Source of the DNA: a bacterium
Lineage (GTDB): Bacteria; JAAXHH01
NCBI GenBank assembly: GCA_965225915.1
Contig: OZ245326.1
Coordinates: 3,393,439 to 3,457,438, forward strand
Length of the DNA stretch: 64,000 bases
Direction of reading: 5' to 3'
How positions within the stretch are numbered: the first letter of the stretch is position 1; every line of letters begins with the position of its first letter. Below the pieces are notes generated by a model. The model had not been told where the DNA came from. It saw only the letters and a list, made by a program, of their open reading frames with translations, and made no database searches. Below, piece after piece: positions 41,363 to 52,900 of this stretch. The position numbers and the translations under genes are program-made.

Positions 41363-42276
41363 GTCCGCGACCGATCTCAGGTCGACCCGGTCGGGGTAGA
41401 TCAGCGCGATGAGATCCTCGATATCGAATGATTCCAATAGACCGAAACAGAAAAGAGACGACATGGATTCATACCGTCCGGGTTCATCGATTAACCGGCA
41501 CAGGCTGCTCAATCCCTGCTGCAGAACGACTTCATCCACATCTCCGTCATACAGGGCCGAGGCCATGAGGGCAACAACGGAAGACACGGGCCCGCAGGCG
41601 GTCAAGTCCAGCTCGGGCGTTCCCACGTGGTTCATGACCGCCGCGAGTTGAGCAACCTGGATACCCAGCATCCTGCCGCCGCTCGATGATACCATCATCG
41701 TCCACTGATGCGGAGCCTTGCCCAGTTCGCACGCTCCCTGCATGATCAATTCGACCGACAGCGCCGTAGATCCTTCACGCAGGACTTCCTCTATCAGGGA
41801 CTCCGCTCGGGATTCAGGGCCACCATGCCCCTCCTGGCCAGGTTGATGCATCGCACCTGCTTGTAGTCCACCGCTTTTCCCGGTGGTCCGACGTGCCCGT
41901 TCAAGTTCAGTACACCCGGTGTTGTATCCTCGAGACGTTCGGGTTCATAGAGCAGGGCTGGAATGAACAGACCGGGCAAAGCCTTGTAGGTCAGCTTGCG
42001 AATCCGGTAGCCCTTGCCGGTATCGATGACCTCCTTCCATTCGATTTCAAGATCGTCCGATCTCCATTCTTCGGGAACACCCTTTAAAACCACCTTATCC
42101 AGCATGATCCGGCGCAACCGCTCGGCTTCGTCTTCCCAGGTGTCGGAATCGAGAAGCCTGAATTCGGGTATGCGGCCAAGCAGATAGGCCTTCAGCATCT
42201 CCACGGTGTGGAGTACCCGGAACGAAGGTGTTGACTGCAGTTCGGACATGCCGGCAGGCAAGGCGATGGCATTCAT
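41357..42276 (-). pseudogene. alpha/beta hydrolase (acetylxylan-esterase/peptidase-like) split into two overlapping ORFs
   Basis: ORFs 41794..42276 and 41357..41851 are in different frames and overlap by ~58 nt. Together they resemble one ~320-aa esterase (GVLNLNGH ... VSSSGG ... FCFGLLESFD). This looks like a frameshift or an assembly indel. Confidence 0.4.
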
Positions 42277-42730
42277 CGGTGCGGTTCCTCTTGTAGATCA
42301 CGCTCAATATCAGAATGGGTACTCGAAAGTGGTTGCATGCGCACTTCCACGTCGATCTGGATATCTCCCCCACCGTGCAGCACCCCCGTTGTGGGGGAAA
42401 CGTCCTGGTAGTCCCTACCCACGGCAACGCGTACATGCCGCTTGTCGACGAAGGTCGAATTGGTGGGATCGAATCCGACCCAACCGAGTCCGGGTAACAG
42501 GCATTCCAGCCAGGCGTGCGTGGTCATCCCCCTGTTTTCCGCATTTTTCGCCGTTTCATCGTGGAGATATCCCGATACGTACCGGGCCGGAATACCCTCA
42601 GGTTCGCGCGATGGCGATCATGACATGGGCGTAGTCCTGGCATACGCCGCGTCCTGTATCCAGAATGTGGTCTATGGTGGAAGAGATTGATGTGCTGCCC
42701 GGTACATACTCAAATCTAGTGAAGATGATT
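42273..42730 (-). pseudogene. transglutaminase-like cysteine protease remnant (N-terminus deleted, internal stop/frameshift near 42600)
   Basis: Manual translation gives [50 protein letters not shown] and then, after a frame change, EGIPARYVSGYLHDE...MTTHAWLECLLPGLGWVGFDPTN...GRDYQDV. That is the catalytic Cys/His/Asp core of the TG-like partner of CP-ATP-grasp operons. Confidence 0.6.
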
Positions 42731-43974
42731 TCAGACAGCCGCTTCAGCGAAACTACCGGATCGGAGGCGGGCTCGATCCCGTTTCACGATGAGATCCTGC
42801 AGGTTGTCCAGCGTGAATTCGAGATCTTCCGGCGGTCGGCAGATATAGGTTTTCACGTTTTGAAGCAACGGTTCTTCGCCCAGGTAATAGCGTATCATGT
42901 CCGGCACGAATGCATATACGCTCTTATCGTCCGCAACGCCTGTACCCGGCGCGTTGACCAGGGTCACATTTCCGGCCTTGTAAACGCTCATCAGACCGGG
43001 CAGACCCAGGAGGGAGTCGGATCGAAAGACGAGGGGATCCAGGAAATCGTCGTCAACGCGGCGATAGATGACGTCCACACGGCGCAGACCCGACGTAGTG
43101 CGCATGTACACGTAATCCTCGTCAACCAGCAGGTCCCTACCTTCGATAAGGGTCGCTCGATCTCGTGGGCCAGATAAATGTGTTCATAAAACGCGGCATT
43201 GAATACACCTGGAGTCAGGAGTACCACGCATGGGTCCGGATGATCGCGAGGCGCGAGTTCGTGCAACATTTCCCGAAGCAGACCGCCGTAATGCTCGACC
43301 TCCTGGACCCGGCAACTGCGATACAACCTTCGTAGATTGATCTTGATAGCTTTCCGGTTAGCGACCATGTAGGACACTCCGGAGGGCACGCGCAGGTTGT
43401 CCTCGAGTACGTGGAACCCTTCATTCGTGCGCACCAGGTCGGTTCCGCAGACCGCGACGTGCGTACCATGAGGTACGGGCACTCCCCGCATTTCCACGCG
43501 GTACTGGGGACATCCCCTAACCATTTCGATGGGAATGACTCCGTCTTCAACGATACGCGCGGGTCCGTAGACATCGGCAAGGAACCGGTTCAATGCCTTC
43601 AAGCGCTGGGAAAGTCCCGCTTCGAGCTGCCGCCATTCACTCGCGGAAATGATCCGGGGCAGACAGTCGACCAGCATGATACGCTCGTTGGCCACCTCGT
43701 CGCCGTAAACCGTAAACGTGATGCCTTCACTGGAAAAGGAATGATTAACCCGTTCCTGCATGCGAACGAGTTCTTCAACGGGAAGGCGGAGCAGGGCTTC
43801 GTAGAGATAACGGCAATGATCGCGAGGCGTGCCGTCGGGCAGGAACATCTCGTCGTAGAAAGCGTTCTCCAGTTCGTACGTTTCGAAATCCATAACAAGG
43901 CTCCGTTCCGGGATCCAGCGCGATCCTTGTCCTGGAACCGTAAGACGGGAAGCAGGCGGAAGGGGTTCCGACAT
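42731..43974 (-). pseudogene. circularly permuted ATP-grasp type 2 protein, frameshifted (~43155..43165) and C-terminally truncated
   Basis: ORF 42991..43974 and ORF 42731..43111 are consecutive parts in different frames. The junction reads ...YLAHEIE|[21 protein letters not shown].... The protein stops ~100 aa early at ...[20 protein letters not shown] and runs straight into the TG-like remnant. Confidence 0.7.
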
Positions 43975-44261
43975 ACCTTACTCATGCTTTCCATTTTATA
44001 CCATGTTATATTTGGCAGCACAACAGATAATCTCAATAGATCTGGCGTAAGTCTGGTGGCAGAAAAAGCGATATGGTAAGGCCTACGGCTGTTTAGTATT
44101 CATGAAGATGTTACAATGTTTTCTGATTGCACTTTGCTCATGCGTCGGTATCTTTCCCTGTAAGTCCAGCCAGGCCGATCCGTGTTCTGTTTGACGAAAT
44201 ACAATACCTTACTTTAACAGCCTGATATTTCCGCGTTTAAATCACGGCGGGAGGCGGTTTA

Positions 44262-46208
44262 ATGGTCATCGAGTTTGTGAATCTACTCACCGCATACTTC
44301 GATTTCATCTGGTTGTCCTTCCTGTTGCTGGCCCCCATGTTGATTCTGGGTCTGCTGCTTTCCGGCCTGATTCATGTTTTCATATCACGCGAAGCCATAT
44401 TGAAATGGCTCCAGGACGACAGTCTCAGGTCGGTAAGCGTGAGCGCCGGGGTCGGCGTTCCTGTGCCGCTGTGCAGTTGCTCCGTTGTTCCGATTGTAGC
44501 GGAAATGCGGCGGAAAGGCGCATCGCGTTCCTCCTGCATGTCGTTCCTGATCACGGCCCCGGAAACCGGGGCGGATTCGATTCTCGTTACCAACGCGTTC
44601 TTCGGGATCGTCGTAGCCTTGATTCGACCCGTCATCAGTTTTATTACCGCGGTCGTGGCGGGTATCTTTTGCATCGGCCTGATCAGAGATGATAACGGCG
44701 AAGCCAGGACGGGCGACCATGACCACCGCGATCACCGCGATCATGACCACCATGATCACGTGCACGACCAATGTCATGGACACGACCATGCGGCTCATGA
44801 AACCCTCCTGTTCGAAAGGGACGATTGCTACGTCAGCCCTTCCGCCATGAAGATACTGATGGCAAGGTGGCTTAAAGGGATATCGACCGTCGCTTCCATA
44901 CGGAGGTTCGGATCGTGGGTTAAACCGGACTTCTATCGCGAACTGAATGAGGCGCAGCAGCAAAAAGTAGCAAAAACCTCCAAAGAAGATATCGTCGAAG
45001 AAGAATATCCCGGTCTCGACTTCAAGAAGATCGTCCAGCATATCATGCGATACGGCTTCGTGGAAATCGCTGACGATATCCTCTTCGCCCTGATCGTCGG
45101 CATTGCGCTGGGCGGCGTGCTCATTCTTGCCCTTCCAGCCGACATGATGTCTAACGAATACGCGCGATGGCTATCCTATCCCATCATGATCCTCGTTGGC
45201 GTGCCCCTTTACATCTGTGCCTCGGCCAGCACACCAATAGCCGCCGCGCTGGTGGCCAAGGGATTCAGCCCGGGTGCCGCCCTGATTTTCCTGATGACCG
45301 GGCCAGCCACCAACACGAGCACGATCGCGATTATCATGAGCCAGTTCGGTGCGCGATTCGCGGCCGTGTACGTTACTTCGATCATCGTGGTAACCGCCAC
45401 CCTGGGTATCGCCATCGACATCATGCTCCTGGCCACGGGATTGGCGGTTACCGTCAATCTGGGTCCGTCCGAATCCCCAACCCTTCAGTTTCTGCAATGG
45501 GGCGGCGCCTTTGCTTTGCTCGGGCTCATTATCTGGAGGTTTCGGGCCGGCGCCATGCGCAGCGGGTTCGAAGACCTAATGCTCAATATCCGTCCCCTAA
45601 CCAGGCCCTGGCTGCGAGTCTGGAAGCGTCTGACGCGGAACCGGTCCATTCGCAGCATGATATCGCCTTCCACCCCTTGGGGAATGATGCTGTACGGTTT
45701 GTTCCTGGTGCTCTTTCTGGGAAGCGGTTTCACGGTTGTGCCTCCAGGGCATGTCGGGTATGGCCGACTCTTCGGCGAAGTCTACTGGAAAGACCTGCAA
45801 CCGGGACTGCATTATCTCGCTCCGCGTCCCCTGGCCCTCGTCGACAAGTGGCCGGTTGCCGAAGTCAAATCCATCATGTCCGAATCGCCCTATGAATACG
45901 TTTCAGGCGACCTGAGCAAGCTTTCGCTCACCCTGGACGTACAGTACCGGGTAAAAGATCCCTACACGTACCATTACAACACGACCGATCCCGAAGAGAT
46001 CATCGAGGGCGCCGTCCGGGAGCACGTGCGCACGTTCATAAACGCCCACGATCTCGACTGGTTGCTCACCGCCTACCGTTCGGACCTGGAGAAAGAAATC
46101 ACCGAACTTTTCCGCCAGGACGTCCTCCCGGATGGATATGAACCGGTACTTGGCACCGTGGACCTGGTGAAGGTCAGCCTGCTTTGTATCAGTCCAGCCG
46201 AGGAATAG
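44262..46208 (+). CDS. DUF318/ArsP_1 (SO_0444-like Cu/Zn efflux) permease with His/Asp-rich loop, fused to a partial SPFH (band-7) domain
   Basis: PLCSCSVVP CxC motif. The loop DHDHRDHRDHDHHDHVHDQCHGHDH is metal-binding in character. The C-terminal ~160 aa (VVPPGHVGYGRLFGEVYWKDLQPGLHYLAP...VQYRVKDP) is the N-terminal half of an HflK/C-type SPFH domain. Confidence 0.7.
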   Translation: MVIEFVNLLTAYFDFIWLSFLLLAPMLILGLLLSGLIHVFISREAILKWLQDDSLRSVSVSAGVGVPVPLCSCSVVPIVAEMRRKGASRSSCMSFLITAPETGADSILVTNAFFGIVVALIRPVISFITAVVAGIFCIGLIRDDNGEARTGDHDHRDHRDHDHHDHVHDQCHGHDHAAHETLLFERDDCYVSPSAMKILMARWLKGISTVASIRRFGSWVKPDFYRELNEAQQQKVAKTSKEDIVEEEYPGLDFKKIVQHIMRYGFVEIADDILFALIVGIALGGVLILALPADMMSNEYARWLSYPIMILVGVPLYICASASTPIAAALVAKGFSPGAALIFLMTGPATNTSTIAIIMSQFGARFAAVYVTSIIVVTATLGIAIDIMLLATGLAVTVNLGPSESPTLQFLQWGGAFALLGLIIWRFRAGAMRSGFEDLMLNIRPLTRPWLRVWKRLTRNRSIRSMISPSTPWGMMLYGLFLVLFLGSGFTVVPPGHVGYGRLFGEVYWKDLQPGLHYLAPRPLALVDKWPVAEVKSIMSESPYEYVSGDLSKLSLTLDVQYRVKDPYTYHYNTTDPEEIIEGAVREHVRTFINAHDLDWLLTAYRSDLEKEITELFRQDVLPDGYEPVLGTVDLVKVSLLCISPAEE

Positions 46209-46364
46209 ATCAATGCGTTCAGGGAGATATCGAGCGCGGTAGGTTTCATGATGGGCGGGCTGATCACCAACTTCTTTCTGATACTGTTCTTCCAGGATCC
46301 AAATATGTTTCGTGCTCTCCATATACTTACCGTTACAAACAGCATAATTACGGGCTGATACATC

Positions 46365-47225
46365 GTGGAATCCAATACGATTCTTCATTTGCTGGGTTAC
46401 TCCGCGGCCATATTTGCCGTGTCCATGCTGGGCGGAAAACTCTCGGCCATCGTGACCTTGACGCACACGCGCACGCAACTGGTCATGAGTCTCGTGGCGG
46501 GGTTTCTCCTGGGCGTCGCCATGTACCACCTCCTGCTGCACAGCATAGAAGACATCCCCGGTCCTTACGCCGCTGAAACCGCCATTGGGTGTGCCGTACT
46601 CGGGATCATCGTGATTGTCGTCATGTTGCGCATATTCCGTTTTCACCAACACGATATCAGTCACGAAGCGATGGAAATGAACGATGACCATCACGGCACG
46701 GTAGATGTAAATCCACGAAGCGTATTCGGCATCGCGCTGGGCCTGGGCCTGCACACTGTTACAGAGGGGATCGCCCTGGGGGCCAGTGTGCGAATTGGTG
46801 TTCTGCATGACGGGGAAGCCGTTCTGGCTGGCCTCGGCGTGTTTCTGGCGATCATGGCTCACAAACCCCTTGATGCATACTCCATCATCGGTTTGATTAG
46901 AGCAACCGGTTACAGTAACCGCTCTTGCACCCTGACCAATATCGGTTTCGCCCTGTTGTGTCCGGTGGTCGCGGTATTGACCTTCCAGGGCGTGGGACTG
47001 CTCAACCAGTTGGAAGAGTTGCATATCGTAGGGTACATCATGGCCTTCGCCGCCGGCGTTTTTCTTTGTATATCCCTCGGTGACCTGTTGCCCGAAATCC
47101 AGTTCCACAGTCACGACCGTGGCATTCTTGCCGTAGCTTTCCTCCTGGGGATCGGTCTCGCTTACGCGCTGTTCTTCTTCGAATCCGACGCCACGCATGG
47201 GTTGAAAAACGGTGTTTTGCATTAG
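46365..47225 (+). CDS. ZIP family divalent metal transporter
   Basis: 286 aa, 8 TM. His-rich loop HQHDISHEAMEMNDDHHG and the ZIP motif HxxxEG (LHTVTEGIALG). Confidence 0.85.
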   Translation: MESNTILHLLGYSAAIFAVSMLGGKLSAIVTLTHTRTQLVMSLVAGFLLGVAMYHLLLHSIEDIPGPYAAETAIGCAVLGIIVIVVMLRIFRFHQHDISHEAMEMNDDHHGTVDVNPRSVFGIALGLGLHTVTEGIALGASVRIGVLHDGEAVLAGLGVFLAIMAHKPLDAYSIIGLIRATGYSNRSCTLTNIGFALLCPVVAVLTFQGVGLLNQLEELHIVGYIMAFAAGVFLCISLGDLLPEIQFHSHDRGILAVAFLLGIGLAYALFFFESDATHGLKNGVLH

Positions 47226-47251
47226 CTTCCATCCAGACTAGGAATAAGGTC

Positions 47252-49489
47252 ATGTCGATTTCCAAGCCAACCATGGATTTCGACGTGGATACTGAAACTC
47301 GGGTATTCCACGTAGAGGGCATGACCTGCAGTGCCTGTTCCGCTCGGGTCGAAAAGGTGCTCGCCAGCGTACCTGGCGTATCCGCCGCCCACGTAAACCT
47401 CGCCCTGGAACGGGCTACCCTGACCGTGCTACCGTCTGTAAAGCAGGAATCGCTGACCGGTTCCGTGGCCGACGCTGGATTTCGACTTACCACCGGCCCC
47501 GCCGATCGAACCAGATCAGAAACCGATCGAATCCTGGGTAGCAGAGACCGCATCGCGATGGTCGTCTCGGTCGCCTTAACGCTTCCGTTTCTTGTTCAGA
47601 TGATTGTGGGATTGCTGCAAGGCTGGACCGGTTTCAGCTGGCACATGCCGGTATATGCGGAAGCAGCCCTGGCTACCGTCCTGCAGATCGCCATCGGAGC
47701 GCGTTACTACAGGAGCGGTTTCTACGCGCTCCGCGGCGGCGGCGCTAACATGGATGTCCTGGTCTCCCTGGGCACCACATCGGCCTACGCATTCAGCTGG
47801 TACCTCGTGCTTACCCTGGGCGCCGACGCCGCGGGGCAACTCTACTTTGAAGCCTCGGCAATCATCATTACCCTCGTGCTGATCGGCAAGCATATCGAAA
47901 CCCGTGCGCGGCGCAGCGCGGGCCGGGCGATACGCGAGCTGCTGGCCATCAGGCCCGAGACCGCACGGGTGCGGACGACCGACGGCACGGAAGAGGAACG
48001 CCCCGTGCACGCGTTGAAGACCGGAGACGTTGTGATCTGCCGTCCCGGTGACCGGGTGGCCGCCGACGGTGTTGTAATTCTCGGAGAAACCGAAATCGAC
48101 GAGGCGCTCATCACCGGCGAAAGTACCCCCGTACAGAAATACCCTGGAGACCTCGTGATCGCCGGATCGGTTAATCTCAATGGTTTCGTGGAAATAGAAG
48201 CCCGCGCTATCGGAAGCGAATCAACCCTTGGGCGGGTGATACGCCTGGTCGAAAACGCTCAGGCCGCCAAACCCGAGATACAGCGAATAGTGGATCGGGT
48301 CAGCGCAGTCTTCGTACCTGTCGTGGTCTTACTGGCCGTAATCACGCTCGCCGCGTGGATCTTGATGGGAGTGACACTGGAAACTGCGTTGATCAATGCC
48401 GTTTCCGTGCTCGTTATCGCGTGTCCCTGCGCCCTGGGCTTGGCTACGCCGACTGCTATCGTAACGGGCGCCGGAGCGGCGGCACGGGCGGGTATACTGG
48501 TCAAGGACATCGAATCCCTGGAACAGGCGAAAGGCCTGACCCACGTGGTTTTCGATAAGACGGGGACTCTGACCGAGGGCAAACCCCGTATCGCATCCGC
48601 CATCCCCCTGGCCAAACGCGACGAGAACGATCTTCTGCGTGTCGCGGCGTCGCTGCAACAGGGCAGTGAACACCCCTTTGCCACCGCGTTTCAGCACATG
48701 GCGACGGAACGAAAACTGGTCCTTACCCGGGTGGAGCGCTTCAGGAATCTCGTAGCCCGGGGCGTCGAGGGAGATATCGAAGGCGTGCGATACTTGCTGG
48801 GAAATCAAAAACTCTTCGAAGAGGCATGCCATACCCCTCCACCGCCCGCTGCTCCCCAGTCCGGAGGTGTCACCGTGGTTTGGCTGGCCTCCCGCGGAGA
48901 ATCAGGATGCAATTACCTTGCCCGCTTCGAACTCGTCGACGCATTGAGACCCGATGCGGCCGAGGTGGTTGAGGAGCTCAGGAGGCTGAACGTCAAGGTT
49001 CTTCTGGTTTCCGGCGATTCTGAATCCGTCGTGAAGCGGATCGGCCGGCAGACGGGCATTGACGAAACGCACAGCGGCGCTACGCCGGAAGAGAAGGAGC
49101 GTATCGTCGGGCAACTGATGGAAAGCGGTGCGAAGGTCTGCATGGTCGGCGACGGGATTAACGACGCACCCGCGCTCGCCCGGGCCACCGTGGGTATAGC
49201 CATGGGCTCCGGTACGGACGTGGCGATGGAAACGGCTGCTATCACGCTGATGAGACCCGATCCCTTCCTGGTGGCCGGCGCGATCGACGTGAGTCGAAGA
49301 ACCATCCGCAAAATCAAGCAGAATCTCTTCTGGGCGTTTATCTACAACGTGATCGGACTGCCGCTTGCTGCGATGGGGTTTCTCTTCCCTGCCGTAGCCG
49401 CGGCCATGATGGCCTTCTCCAGTATCAGCGTGGTCCTGAACTCGCTGATGCTCCGGTCATGGAAACCGCGGGAACTTAAAAGAATTTAG
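47252..49489 (+). CDS. heavy-metal (Cu+-type, CopA-like) P1B-type ATPase
   Basis: N-terminal HMA domain MTCSACSARVE. TM6 CPCALGLATP, DKTGTLT, SEHPFA, TM7 YN and TM8 MAFSS are CopA-type signatures. Confidence 0.9.
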   Translation: MSISKPTMDFDVDTETRVFHVEGMTCSACSARVEKVLASVPGVSAAHVNLALERATLTVLPSVKQESLTGSVADAGFRLTTGPADRTRSETDRILGSRDRIAMVVSVALTLPFLVQMIVGLLQGWTGFSWHMPVYAEAALATVLQIAIGARYYRSGFYALRGGGANMDVLVSLGTTSAYAFSWYLVLTLGADAAGQLYFEASAIIITLVLIGKHIETRARRSAGRAIRELLAIRPETARVRTTDGTEEERPVHALKTGDVVICRPGDRVAADGVVILGETEIDEALITGESTPVQKYPGDLVIAGSVNLNGFVEIEARAIGSESTLGRVIRLVENAQAAKPEIQRIVDRVSAVFVPVVVLLAVITLAAWILMGVTLETALINAVSVLVIACPCALGLATPTAIVTGAGAAARAGILVKDIESLEQAKGLTHVVFDKTGTLTEGKPRIASAIPLAKRDENDLLRVAASLQQGSEHPFATAFQHMATERKLVLTRVERFRNLVARGVEGDIEGVRYLLGNQKLFEEACHTPPPPAAPQSGGVTVVWLASRGESGCNYLARFELVDALRPDAAEVVEELRRLNVKVLLVSGDSESVVKRIGRQTGIDETHSGATPEEKERIVGQLMESGAKVCMVGDGINDAPALARATVGIAMGSGTDVAMETAAITLMRPDPFLVAGAIDVSRRTIRKIKQNLFWAFIYNVIGLPLAAMGFLFPAVAAAMMAFSSISVVLNSLMLRSWKPRELKRI

Positions 49490-49511
49490 ACTGTTCATAA
49501 AGAAAGTTTGG

Positions 49512-49535
49512 AAGACGTCACGTCTAAGACGTCTC
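49512..49535. terminator. candidate bidirectional hairpin between convergent P-type ATPase and histidine kinase genes
   Basis: AGACGTC(acgtctaa)GACGTCT is a 7-bp stem overlapping the HK stop codon. On the HK transcript it is followed by a T-rich stretch (ctttctttatg). It is a weak candidate. Confidence 0.3.
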
Positions 49536-51683
49536 CACCGCGGATGCGGCAGCCGCAACGAGCGGGATTTCGATGGTCATTTCGGTGTATTCTCCGGGTT
49601 CGGAATCCACCTTGATCACACCACCGTGCTCGCGTATGACATCGTTTGAAAGCGCCAGGCCCAGACCGGTGCCCTGATCGGTAGGCTTGGTGGTGAAGAA
49701 GGGATTGAAGATCTTTTCTCTGACATGGGGCGGGATTCCCTTGCCATTGTCCTTGATGCGGATCACGATCTGATCGGCCTCGCGGCGGGTGGCCAACCAT
49801 AGGGCGGGGACGTATTCGGACGCGGTTTCCGGATCTTGCTGCTTTTCGTGGGTAGCGTGGCACGCGTTATTGACCATGTTCACAAATACCCGGGCCATAT
49901 CCTGGGACACGATCTCTACCTCTCCCATTTGCGGATCCAGGTCTTCGTTTATTTCGAGTTGAAATTCTGAATTGGTTGCCCGGGCGCTGTGAAACGCAAG
50001 GCGGGCATGCTCTTCAAGCAAGGGGTTTAGATCGGTGGACTGTTTCTCTGCGGATCCCCGCCCCATCTGCAGCATGTCGCGTACGATTCGATTAGCCCGT
50101 TCGCCGTGCTCCCGGATGCGGCGCAGGTTGTCCGACAGATCGCCGCCGAGTTCGAGAATCAAATCATTCTGCTCTTCGGTCAGGGATCCACCTTCCGTCG
50201 GTAGTTCTTCCTGAAGTTCTTCGAGCAGTTCCTCCGACGATTCGGCGAAGTTCTTCACGAAGTTCAGCGGGTTCTGTATTTCGTGCGCGACGCCTGCCGT
50301 CAGTTCCCCAAGGGCCGCAAGTTTTTCCCGCATGACGATCTGATCCTGCGCGTGCTGAAGCTCAACGAGCGTTGTTTCCAGTTCGTCGTTCTTGCCTCGG
50401 AGTTCCTCCGCGAGTTTTTCCACGAGGTTCAGTCGCTGCGCTTCGATAGAATGCAGCCTGAACACTTCAAGGGCGGCGGCCATGTCCGCCACCTCGTCGC
50501 GACCGTCCAGTTCCACCTTCTGCTTCAGATCACCACCGGCCATACGACGCATGTGTTCGGACAGAAACCCCAGACGGCGAAGTAACACCTTGCCGACGAA
50601 TAACCACGCGATGAGGACCGCTCCAATCAGGCTGATGGCGTTGAGGACAAGCAGGAGCTGTCTACCCACCTGGATCGTCTGCGTGGAAGCAACCGTAGCT
50701 GCCTGGGTGCTTGCCTGCGCCGAATTCACGAGATTCTCCACCTCGGCGACCAGTTCGACGGCGAGATCGCGGTTGCTATCGATCAATGCGCGCTGTTGGG
50801 CCATAAGCTCCAGGTCTTCCGCGCGGATTTGAAAGATCTTTCCCTGGCCGCTTCCCAGTTCAAACAACTGGTCAAACACCGGTTCGAGACTTTGCCGCAG
50901 CGGAGCCGTTCCCAGGCCTGCCAAACTCCTTTCAACTCCGCCGCTGGCCGATTCGAATCGCTCCAGCAGGGGCTCCAGTCGGTCGGCGTTGGAGAGGTTG
51001 AAGACGTTGGACAGGATTCGGGTGCTGACGGTCGCCTCGGTCTGCAATTCGGCGAGATGCCGGTATCGCTGCAGTTCTATTTCAGAAAGGAATTCCGTAC
51101 GAGGCGCCGCCGGTTCGTCTATGTTCCGGTAACCGGTGGTTGTGTAAAACAACTGGTTGTCCAGGGCCGGAACAAGAATACCGGCCATTTCGAGCTGCAG
51201 TTGCTCCAGTTCACGACGAAAGCGCTGGGTTTGATCCTCGAGGATGAAGCGTCTCGCCACGGACTCCTCGATCATACCGATGTTGGTAATCAGCGTGTTA
51301 CCGCTTTCACTGATACGTTGAAATCGTTCGTTTTCCATGCCATGACTGGTTAGCGCTTCCAGTTGAACCGCGAAGCTTTCGCGTTCTTCGGCGATACTAG
51401 CCGTCACGGCAGCAAATGCCTCGGGAGTTTCCGCGGCTGTCAGTCGCGGAGCGGCGGCCGCCAGCGTTCCGCTCTGTTGCGCAACACCGAACGCGTCGGC
51501 GATTTCGGGGACCGCCACTTCATTCACTTCCCGTTGGGCCTCACCGACCTCGTTGAAGGCGAACCAGGCCACCATACTTGCTATCATGGTGAGCGCTACG
51601 GCCGTGCCGATACCCAAGTACAACTGTCCCGAAATACGGGAAGGGCCTTTGTCATATAACCACAGCAGCCAACTCTTGATCAC
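49524..51683 (-). CDS. sensor histidine kinase (periplasmic sensor-HAMP-HisKA-HATPase)
   Basis: 719 aa with two TM helices flanking a ~300-aa periplasmic domain. HAMP, H-box GVAHEIQNPLN, and the N/G1/G2 boxes. Confidence 0.9.
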   Translation of the reverse strand: MIKSWLLWLYDKGPSRISGQLYLGIGTAVALTMIASMVAWFAFNEVGEAQREVNEVAVPEIADAFGVAQQSGTLAAAAPRLTAAETPEAFAAVTASIAEERESFAVQLEALTSHGMENERFQRISESGNTLITNIGMIEESVARRFILEDQTQRFRRELEQLQLEMAGILVPALDNQLFYTTTGYRNIDEPAAPRTEFLSEIELQRYRHLAELQTEATVSTRILSNVFNLSNADRLEPLLERFESASGGVERSLAGLGTAPLRQSLEPVFDQLFELGSGQGKIFQIRAEDLELMAQQRALIDSNRDLAVELVAEVENLVNSAQASTQAATVASTQTIQVGRQLLLVLNAISLIGAVLIAWLFVGKVLLRRLGFLSEHMRRMAGGDLKQKVELDGRDEVADMAAALEVFRLHSIEAQRLNLVEKLAEELRGKNDELETTLVELQHAQDQIVMREKLAALGELTAGVAHEIQNPLNFVKNFAESSEELLEELQEELPTEGGSLTEEQNDLILELGGDLSDNLRRIREHGERANRIVRDMLQMGRGSAEKQSTDLNPLLEEHARLAFHSARATNSEFQLEINEDLDPQMGEVEIVSQDMARVFVNMVNNACHATHEKQQDPETASEYVPALWLATRREADQIVIRIKDNGKGIPPHVREKIFNPFFTTKPTDQGTGLGLALSNDVIREHGGVIKVDSEPGEYTEMTIEIPLVAAAASAVETS

Positions 51684-52900
51684 GGCATCTCGTCCCGAAG
51701 GGATTCAATAGGATGGTAACGTCCATCTTTACCGATGACGGTGAGGAAGACCGCGTCGGAGCCCTGGTTGTCATCTACACCGAATTCAAGACGAAGTCCG
51801 CCCATGTCTATGGTTTCGGCCCGGTTCAGGCTTTCCATGAGACAGTTCCGCTTTACATCGGGTCCGCAACCTTCCAGCGCGCTGATCGCAAGACGGCCGG
51901 CCAGGTATCCTTCGAATGAAACGAATCCCGGCGCAGCCCCTGGCTCATACGCGGCCAGGGCCCTTCGGTACGCTACGGCTATGGATATATTACTGGCCCC
52001 GGGGAAGGGGACCACCTGCGATACGAGGACGCCCCGGCCGTTGGAGCCCAGTTCCCGGGCCAACGCGTTGCTGCCCACGAAGGAGATCGTCGCGAAGACC
52101 GGGTTGAAACCCACGTGCCGGGCCCACGTTATGAGCGTGGCAACCGGCTGGTACGCACCGATAACTACGACCGCGTCCGGTTTTCCCTGTTGAAGATCGA
52201 GCAGGCCGGCCTTGATCGCCGTGGTGTTCCTGGGATACACGCCGATCGCCACCGGATCCAGCTTCCTGCGTTCCAATGCCAGCCTTACCCCTCTATAACC
52301 AACCCTGCCAAAAGAATCATTTTGATACATCACGCCGATGCGCGTGATGCCGAGATCCCGCGACAAACGGTCTACGATTTCCTCGGTTTCCTGGTAGTAG
52401 GAAGCGCGCAGGTTGATTACGCCCGATTCAGTATTGTCTCTTAAGAAAATCGCGCCGGTAAATGGCGCGATATAAGGTACACCCGCCTGCGAGGTGATTG
52501 GAACTGCCGAGCGGGAAGTCGGCGTGCCCACAGCGCCGATGAGTGCAAATACCTGTTCTTCCTCGATCAACTTCCGGGTATTCGCGATGGCGGCTTCCGG
52601 TTCGTATGCGTCGTCAAGGGTAATCAACTCAAGACGGCGTCCGTGCACACCCCCCTTGCGGTTCACCTCCCGAAAAGCCGCCTCGATCCCGAGATTCATG
52701 TTCTGGCCGAGTTCCCGGGCCGGACCACTGAACGCTGCGGACTGACCGAATAGAATGCGTTCGTCGGAAACGCCTGGTTCCTGTTCTTCAACCTGGGCGG
52801 CGTTCGCACCGCTGTTTTCGTGGGATAAAGCGGGAGAGAACGCCGTCGCACAGAGGGCGAATAATAAAACGACCGCCCAGTGTTCTCGCGTTCGTCTCAT
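51680..52900 (-). CDS. periplasmic binding protein (type 1, Leu/Ile/Val-binding-like), likely HK-associated sensor partner
   Basis: 406 aa with a signal peptide and LivJ/LivK-like fold sequence. Its stop overlaps the HK start by 4 nt. Confidence 0.8.
   Translation of the reverse strand: MRRTREHWAVVLLFALCATAFSPALSHENSGANAAQVEEQEPGVSDERILFGQSAAFSGPARELGQNMNLGIEAAFREVNRKGGVHGRRLELITLDDAYEPEAAIANTRKLIEEEQVFALIGAVGTPTSRSAVPITSQAGVPYIAPFTGAIFLRDNTESGVINLRASYYQETEEIVDRLSRDLGITRIGVMYQNDSFGRVGYRGVRLALERRKLDPVAIGVYPRNTTAIKAGLLDLQQGKPDAVVVIGAYQPVATLITWARHVGFNPVFATISFVGSNALARELGSNGRGVLVSQVVPFPGASNISIAVAYRRALAAYEPGAAPGFVSFEGYLAGRLAISALEGCGPDVKRNCLMESLNRAETIDMGGLRLEFGVDDNQGSDAVFLTVIGKDGRYHPIESLRDEMP

Follow-up and report, generated by a model that had tools for sequence, protein, structure and literature searches.

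Under stress by ZnSO4 or CuCl2, Shewanella oneidensis requires the SO_0444 permease for growth, and this requirement led to its annotation as a Cu/Zn efflux protein (PMC3219624); a homologue in Nitratiruptor is strongly induced by Cd and Cu (PMC10092412). The prototype is a stand-alone permease of about 350 amino acids (aa; the corresponding model has 351 positions), and Shewanella has an adjacent regulator of the ZntR/MerR type. A second system of reference is the HflK/HflC cage of E. coli (PDB 7VHP, 7WI3), an assembly of SPFH-domain proteins that encloses FtsH. Here we describe a locus in which both themes meet. It lies in a 64,000-nucleotide (nt) stretch of bacterial DNA (contig OZ245326.1, positions 3,393,439 to 3,457,438; hereafter the window, to which all coordinates refer) and comprises a gene for an SO_0444-type permease joined to a shortened HflK-like SPFH part, followed by genes for a ZIP transporter and a CopA-like P1B-1 ATPase. 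Rather than a protein of novel design, the 648-aa permease–SPFH gene very probably represents a decay product, the shortened remainder of a five-gene cassette.

The three consecutive plus-strand genes that had been noted in a preliminary description of this DNA were recovered by open reading frame (ORF) calling and by profile searches against Pfam and NCBIfam. The permease–SPFH ORF occupies 44262-46208 (ArsP_1 and Band_7), a divergent ZIP-family transporter of 286 aa with a GTG start follows at 46365-47225 (Zip), and the ATPase, 745 aa long with a single N-terminal HMA domain, at 47252-49489 (HMA, E1-E2_ATPase and Hydrolase). The first 430 residues of the fusion (44262-45551) constitute an SO_0444-family (ArsP_1, PF03773) permease domain. 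ArsP_1 is matched at aa 22-385 (E 1.2e-45), and the equivalog NF033936 (SO_0444 Cu/Zn efflux) is reached (317.9 bits, cutoff 300), with model positions 5-348 of 351 covered by aa 20-424. Like the prototype, the domain contains a CSC pair (aa 71-73, within the CSCS motif at 44472-44483), the PLYICASASTP block and a His-rich central loop, here the 25-residue His/Asp-rich segment DHDHRDHRDHDHHDHVHDQCHGHDH (aa 152-176; 44715-44789); motif and loop had both been read correctly before. In contrast to the prototype, the subfamily to which the window protein belongs has an HflK-like C-terminal extension, which in this copy is truncated, and the window has no ZntR/MerR-type regulator gene next to the permease gene.

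As a member of the SO_0444 family, the permease of the window most likely acts on its own as a Cu/Zn exporter. The ATPase, rightly called CopA-like, is most likely a Cu+ exporter: it exceeds the cutoff of TIGR01511 (Cu ATPase; 551.4 versus 397 bits) and possesses one HMA domain and the complete P1B-1 motif set, i.e. CSAC, TGE, CPC in the fourth transmembrane helix, DKTGT, SEHP, GDGIND, N(x6)YN(x4)P in the fifth and M(x2)SS(x5)N in the sixth. The ZIP protein, a predicted divalent-metal transporter, passes the Pfam cutoff (PF02535; 60.6 versus 35.1 bits) over profile positions 153-318 only. Yet neither protein reaches the NCBIfam equivalog of its E. coli counterpart (CopA, 592.6 < 1316; ZupT, 32.1 < 252), and transport activity, substrate and direction are predicted for this island from family membership.

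The C-terminal part of the fusion consists of an Arg/Lys-rich linker (45552-45689) between the last permease helix and an HflK-type membrane anchor, as judged from the charge count and a structural model of a homologue, and of the anchor itself with a globular SPFH core (aa 477-648; 45690-46205). Band_7 is matched at aa 492-635 with 42.7 bits against a gathering threshold of 23.6 (E 8.3e-11), and the match stops at profile position 137 of 176, having started at position 2; the abrupt end of the SPFH part was thus correctly perceived. The family profile of the C-terminal half aligns to residues 84-346 of E. coli HflK (PDB 7VHP; E 8e-23), so that full-length members match the anchor, the SPFH core, the helices and the C-terminal segment. 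The window protein lacks the portion that corresponds to HflK residues of about 250-346. It does not have a complete SPFH domain with ring-forming C-terminal helices, and it remains below the HflK equivalog TIGR01933 (49.3 versus 159.4).

A permease covalently linked to a band-7 fragment had been regarded as uncommon, and as a possible frameshift artefact. The relatives of the window protein tell a different story. A homologue search with the 648-aa protein gave 2282 hits, and domains were checked in the best 120, nearly all of which are 57-78% identical over the full query. PF03773 and PF01145 occur together in 114 of these 120 proteins; almost all measure 738-892 aa, and the usual full-length fusion has about 770-785 aa. 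In a scan of one genome per species, the full-length C-terminal half was encoded in 98 genomes, and these include representatives of Gemmatimonadota, Latescibacterota, Opitutales, Arenicellales, Terriglobia, Pseudomonadales, Nitrospinota, Binatia, Spirochaetia and several alphaproteobacterial groups. When the C-terminal 219 aa of the window protein were used as an HMMER query against 1.84 billion cluster representatives, 612 relatives were retrieved. The SO_0444 permease domain was present in 36 of the best 150 clusters (50% identity), and all nine long cluster members tested were ArsP_1+Band_7 fusions. From this distribution over homologues, genomes and clusters it is apparent that the permease–SPFH fusion is an old, diverse and conserved architecture. 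The anomaly is the truncation, by which the window copy falls about 125 aa short, and not the fusion. The databases already contain the subfamily of which the window gene is a degraded member, its proteins being named "SO_0444 family Cu/Zn efflux transporter" at NCBI and, in one case, "YraQ/HflC" at JGI, and the island is built of known families. One homologue, P0029, was considered as a triple fusion of permease, SPFH domain and ZIP, but its Zip match scores below the cutoff (32.2 < 35.1) and overlaps the permease domain (aa 25-205), and it was judged spurious. As a separate observation, the P-type ATPase P0237 (1038 aa; E1-E2_ATPase and Hydrolase), which resembles the window ATPase with E 1e-82, bears a complete Band_7 domain at its C-terminus, as do P0204 and P0185, and therefore represents a second class of metal transporter fused covalently to SPFH.

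The genomic surroundings of the full-length fusions reveal what has been lost. In the 77%-identical locus of a Gemmatimonadota metagenome-assembled genome (MAG), denoted L005, the fusion gene (784 aa) stands first, and behind it come two Band_7 genes (297 and 447 aa), a Peripla_BP_6 gene (399 aa), a gene for a 162-aa membrane protein, a ZIP gene and an ATPase gene. The two Band_7 proteins exceed the equivalog cutoffs for HflC (153.7 > 134.4) and HflK (167.8 > 159.4), respectively. The order fusion, HflC-like protein, HflK-like protein, periplasmic binding protein and 162-aa membrane protein recurs in nearly all of 80 genome loci (L006-L085, all from MAGs) that were searched by tblastn with the L005 proteins. 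The fusion was found in 79 of them, HflC in 79, HflK in 80, the binding protein in 76 and the 162-aa protein in 75; since contig ends interrupt some loci, where a few of the HflC and HflK counts represent cross-hits, the safe figure is at least 75 of 80. A ZIP gene comes after the cassette in 42 loci, and the CopA-like ATPase follows ZIP in the 8 closest loci only. Taken together, the cassette is collinear in at least 75 of the 80 species genomes, which represent more than 10 phyla and are 51-93% identical in the SPFH half of the fusion. This distribution suggests that it spread horizontally. Seen against the gene order in the relatives, the window island is evidently the tail end of such a cassette after excision of its core.

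An alignment of the window with L005 locates the excision precisely. Window positions 44271-46237 align to L005 6010-8000, and the alignment resumes at window 46390 with L005 12403 and continues onward; hence, about 4.4 kb of L005 are replaced by about 150 nt. The deletion took away some 350 nt at the 3' end of the fusion, all of hflC, hflK and the gene for the binding protein, and the greater part of the fifth gene. What remains of the latter lies at 46239-46292, where tblastx against L005 detects its last ~20 codons, devoid of the native stop codon and in frame with the fusion ORF: window 46227-46292 and L005 12234-12299 are 59% identical over 22 aa (E 1e-5 to 2e-6), with SAVGFMMGGLITNFFLILFF in the window corresponding to SAIGFMAGGLITIVLLMVFF and a stop in L005. 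The sequence AGCGC, located at 46233-46237, occurs at both breakpoints. The left one in L005 reads TCAAGCGC followed by C, the right one GTCAGCGC followed by G, and the window TCGAGCGC followed by G. The joint records a microhomology-mediated deletion of about 4.4 kb.

The fusion ORF ends even before the joint is reached. Its TAG (46206-46208) occupies the position of an Ala codon in full-length homologues, and the reading frame beyond it continues the family sequence: the window reads ISPAEE, stop, INAFREISSA where homologues have ITPAAEAINSFREISSAQEDRDRIIV, or, over a longer stretch, LVKVSLLCISPAEE, stop, INAFREISSAVGFMMGGLITNFFLILFF in place of LVKVSLLNITPAAEAINSFREISSAQEDRDRIIVNAQ. As ten homologous codons follow in the same frame (46209-46238), matching the start of the first C-terminal helix, the TAG is recognizable as an in-frame nonsense codon 10 codons before the joint. 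The earlier statement that the 157 nt downstream of the gene do not convincingly continue the domain therefore holds past 46238, where the SPFH homology ends, but not for the first 30 nt, which encode INAFREISSA against INSFREISSA in the homologues. A frameshift or indel that would restore the domain, as had been envisaged, was sought by translating 46050-46450 in three frames and was rejected: past the TAG only these 10 codons, in the frame of the gene, are homologous, and the missing ~125 aa are not encoded in any of the three. Nor did tblastn with all cassette proteins detect another homologue of HflC, HflK or the 162-aa protein anywhere in the 64-kb window. As to relocated cassette genes, the only match was a 39%-identical paralogue of the binding protein beside a histidine kinase.

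How much of the SPFH part is left was assessed with an AlphaFold2 model of the full-length homologue P0004. Its overall scores are low (predicted local distance difference test, pLDDT, 59; predicted template modelling score, pTM, 0.38), the SPFH part has a pLDDT of 72-86, and the secondary structure only was used. The model has two linker helices (414-437 and 441-465) and a beta-rich core that ends with a strand at 641-653, which is followed by long helices at 655-684, 693-727 and 729-746. Window residue 648 corresponds to P0004 residue 656 at the start of the first of these, and the window SPFH part terminates two residues past the last core beta-strand. Since the stop maps just past that strand, the supposed half domain is in fact a complete globular core minus the three long C-terminal helices, and its existence as an architecture in its own right gives way to a product of deletion and nonsense mutation. 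In HflK/C, QmcA and other SPFH cages the oligomer owes its wall and cap to the C-terminal helices. With these helices and both partner SPFH proteins gone, a dedicated assembly presumably cannot form, and a cage could not be built from the genes of this locus. Between aa 402 and 473, ahead of the last membrane helix, a loop contains 11 Lys and Arg versus 3 Asp and Glu residues. HflK likewise has a positively charged segment in front of its anchor, and by the positive-inside rule the Arg/Lys-rich loop suggests a periplasmic location of the SPFH part, again as in HflK.

The history of the locus may be pictured as follows. The ancestor would have possessed a cassette encoding the SO_0444 permease::HflK-like fusion, HflC, HflK, a Peripla_BP_6 protein and the 162-aa protein, followed by ZIP and, as in the closest clade, the ATPase. 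In the lineage of the window, illegitimate recombination between the two AGCGC microhomologies removed the ~4.4 kb, so that codon 658 of the fusion is now continued in frame by the final ~22 codons of the fifth gene, and the TAG 10 codons upstream of the joint terminates the protein right after the globular SPFH core. The remnant would take no part in a dedicated SPFH assembly. The permease domain, by contrast, may well work alone as an SO_0444-type Cu/Zn exporter, probably co-transcribed with ZIP and the Cu+ ATPase from a conserved promoter-like element upstream. The feature in the window is a textbook case of microhomology-mediated gene loss and should not be reported as a new architecture.

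The state of the surviving parts was examined by comparison with the closest lineage (L001-L004, 88-95% nucleotide identity). The ratios of nonsynonymous to synonymous substitution rates (dN/dS) amount to 0.27 for the permease domain, 0.14 for ZIP and 0.185 for the ATPase, and to 0.57 for the shared part of the SPFH remnant, the last value being derived from 16 substitutions only. The window ZIP is 76% identical to the post-cassette ZIP of L005. At 170 positions that are at least 97% conserved in the family, the permease keeps the family residue in 166 cases, and the four exceptions are V/I/L swaps. By these measures, purifying selection appears to maintain the permease domain, ZIP and the ATPase in an intact state. 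The sister lineage has gone further. In L001 a TGA at codon 470 separates the remnant from the permease and leaves a 469-aa permease-only ORF, two further segments of the remnant have been lost between short direct repeats (GGACGT and ACCGT), and the remnant is enriched in changes at conserved sites (8/53 versus 8/235, p = 0.003). At least 9 contigs, which stem from several samples and include the sister genomes L001-L004, show this form. Most economically, the clade would have lost the scaffold module and kept the permease, the window representing an earlier or slower stage in the decay of the SPFH core.

Several observations weigh against this reading. The linker and SPFH part of the window protein retain 42 of 42 family-conserved positions, and lineage-specific changes are not enriched in the remnant (7/92 versus 12/235 in the permease, p = 0.43). 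As there is no measurable relaxation of constraint, the remnant may be young or still useful. The permease dN/dS lies above those of ZIP and ATPase, and neighbouring genes are decaying, so the whole permease gene could be on its way out. Finally, one deletion shared with L001 and two independent losses each require three events, which leaves the two histories level.

Set apart from this question, we noticed that identity to L001 is 95% over 43226-45940 (spacer and permease) versus 88-89% on the flanks, and that synonymous divergence (dS) is 0.10 in the permease, 0.27 in ZIP and 0.35 in the ATPase. The 43226-45940 block could have recombined between the two lineages; it ends exactly at the start of the extra deletion in L001.

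Of the other explanations, the one that fares best treats the entire gene, permease included, as a dead pseudogene in a decaying region in which only ZIP and ATPase function. The fragmentation or deletion of neighbouring genes (for a circularly-permuted ATP-grasp protein, an Alpha-E protein, a transglutaminase and an AXE1-like protein) fits this idea, as does the fact that the permease dN/dS is about twice that of ZIP. Nevertheless, we hold it to be unlikely, because the frame is open over 648 codons and is equipped with a start codon, a GGAGG ribosome-binding site (44250-44254, 7 nt before the ATG) and the conserved promoter-like element, the score exceeds the SO_0444 equivalog cutoff, the few changes at conserved sites are all conservative, dN/dS is well below 1, and the sister lineage has retained the permease as an ORF of its own. 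Still less probable is that the 648-aa protein constitutes a functional architecture, a permease with a monomeric SPFH core kept for lipid or microdomain targeting or for regulation of the permease. All 172 codons of the SPFH part are open, the conserved positions are fully kept, the rate of lineage-specific change in the remnant does not differ from that in the permease domain, and the cut falls exactly at a structural boundary, so that the core could fold. Against this, no other protein among the 120 best homologues shows this length class as a conserved form, with full-length members at 738-892 aa. Furthermore, the end is a nonsense codon trailed by ten homologous codons and a deletion scar, the nearest lineage has a stop between permease and a degrading remnant, and all partner genes are gone. 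A collapse, frameshift or chimeric join introduced by sequencing or assembly is scarcely credible even though the source appears to be metagenome-derived and metagenome assemblies contain errors, because the Logan assemblies of ERR14231557 and ERR14231558 are independent and agree at 100% identity with zero gaps over 42613-49208, TAG and joint included, no frame of 46209-46364 supplies the missing residues, the lost genes do not reappear elsewhere in the window, and sister genomes from other samples display a loss at this very site, either nested or parallel. The identical 648-aa protein is recorded in these two Logan assemblies and in a third contig of more than 1 Mb.

The decayed gene being accounted for in this way, the cassette matters more than the window gene itself: strongly conserved and present in more than 10 phyla, it links a metal permease covalently with an HflK/HflC pair. 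It is moderately interesting and the part that repays study, and it is absent from the window. In literature searches, which also covered SPFH proteins in sponge symbionts, neither the permease::HflK-like fusion nor the cassette around it was described in any paper found. In E. coli the cage encloses FtsH, whereas here an HflK-like unit is placed covalently on a transporter, and the cassette of the relatives encodes HflC and HflK equivalogs beside it. We tentatively entertain the possibility, which we regard as somewhat doubtful, that the intact cassette specifies a new kind of SPFH system. This would be an HflK/HflC-type cage, periplasmic according to the positive-inside rule, of which a Cu/Zn permease is a covalent component by virtue of its HflK-like tail, while the binding protein and ZIP are accessories; the cassette would have spread horizontally among distant bacteria, many or all of them associated with sponges or corals. 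The window would then be a natural 'cage-less' deletion mutant that keeps permease, ZIP and ATPase. If the cassette does form a transporter-containing SPFH cage, it would offer a concrete, genetically tractable client for bacterial SPFH scaffolds, and cassette-deleting lineages such as that of the window would serve as natural controls. As regards habitat, many isolate tags of the cassette genomes look sponge- or coral-derived when the names are read (jk18x/p16x, APA_bin, RHO_bin, Plut_, SB0662), and jk18x7bins.13 (L030) is an Opitutales MAG from an Ircinia sponge (PMC9531527).

The spacer upstream of the fusion gene had been described as AT-rich, which is the case to a modest degree (GC 0.46-0.47 over 43900-44349 versus about 0.56 around). 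In an alignment with four relatives, the blocks GATTGC[A/T]CTTT and GGTAT[C/T]TT are conserved across a spacer that is 62% identical overall. They contain the elements TTGCAC (44127-44132) and TATCTT (44149-44154), 16 nt apart on the plus strand, which look like an ordinary promoter; a scan of 43975-44261 with the sigma-70 consensus gave no match and did not call this element. MerR-type promoters have a spacer of 19-20 nt, and the 16-nt spacing argues against a MerR-type mechanism. The metal-responsive regulator and operator that had been proposed to lie within 43975-44261 were not found there; this region has a promoter-like element only and no inverted repeat, no Rfam family or riboswitch was detected in 43800-49700, and no ArsR, MerR or CsoR gene adjoins the island, the neighbours being an ATP-grasp pseudogene upstream and a convergent histidine kinase gene downstream.

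The ATP-grasp pseudogene (42731-43974, minus strand) is split into two overlapping ORFs, one of 327 aa (42991-43974) that matches profile positions 1-172 and one of 126 aa (42731-43111) that matches positions 185-298; in L005 the gene encodes 484 aa. It belongs to a zone of local decay on the minus strand (41363-44000), outside which the 64-kb window is densely coding. Two blocks of L001 are absent from the window, one of about 1.0 kb at ~41807 (AXE1-like gene) and one of about 1.3 kb at ~42785 (transglutaminase/Alpha-E), and the window contains about 195 nt without an L001 counterpart at 43031-43226; L001 itself is missing parts of this region that are present in L005. An antisense ORF of 439 aa (45903-47222, minus strand) overlaps the 3' end of the fusion gene and the entire ZIP gene. 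Spurious ORFs are common opposite real genes in GC-rich DNA, and this one is most likely spurious. On the other side of the island, the minus strand encodes, convergent to the ATPase gene, a TorS-sensor/HAMP histidine kinase (49524-51683) and a Peripla_BP_6 binding protein (51680-52900), the latter being the 39%-identical paralogue of the binding protein that was deleted from the cassette.

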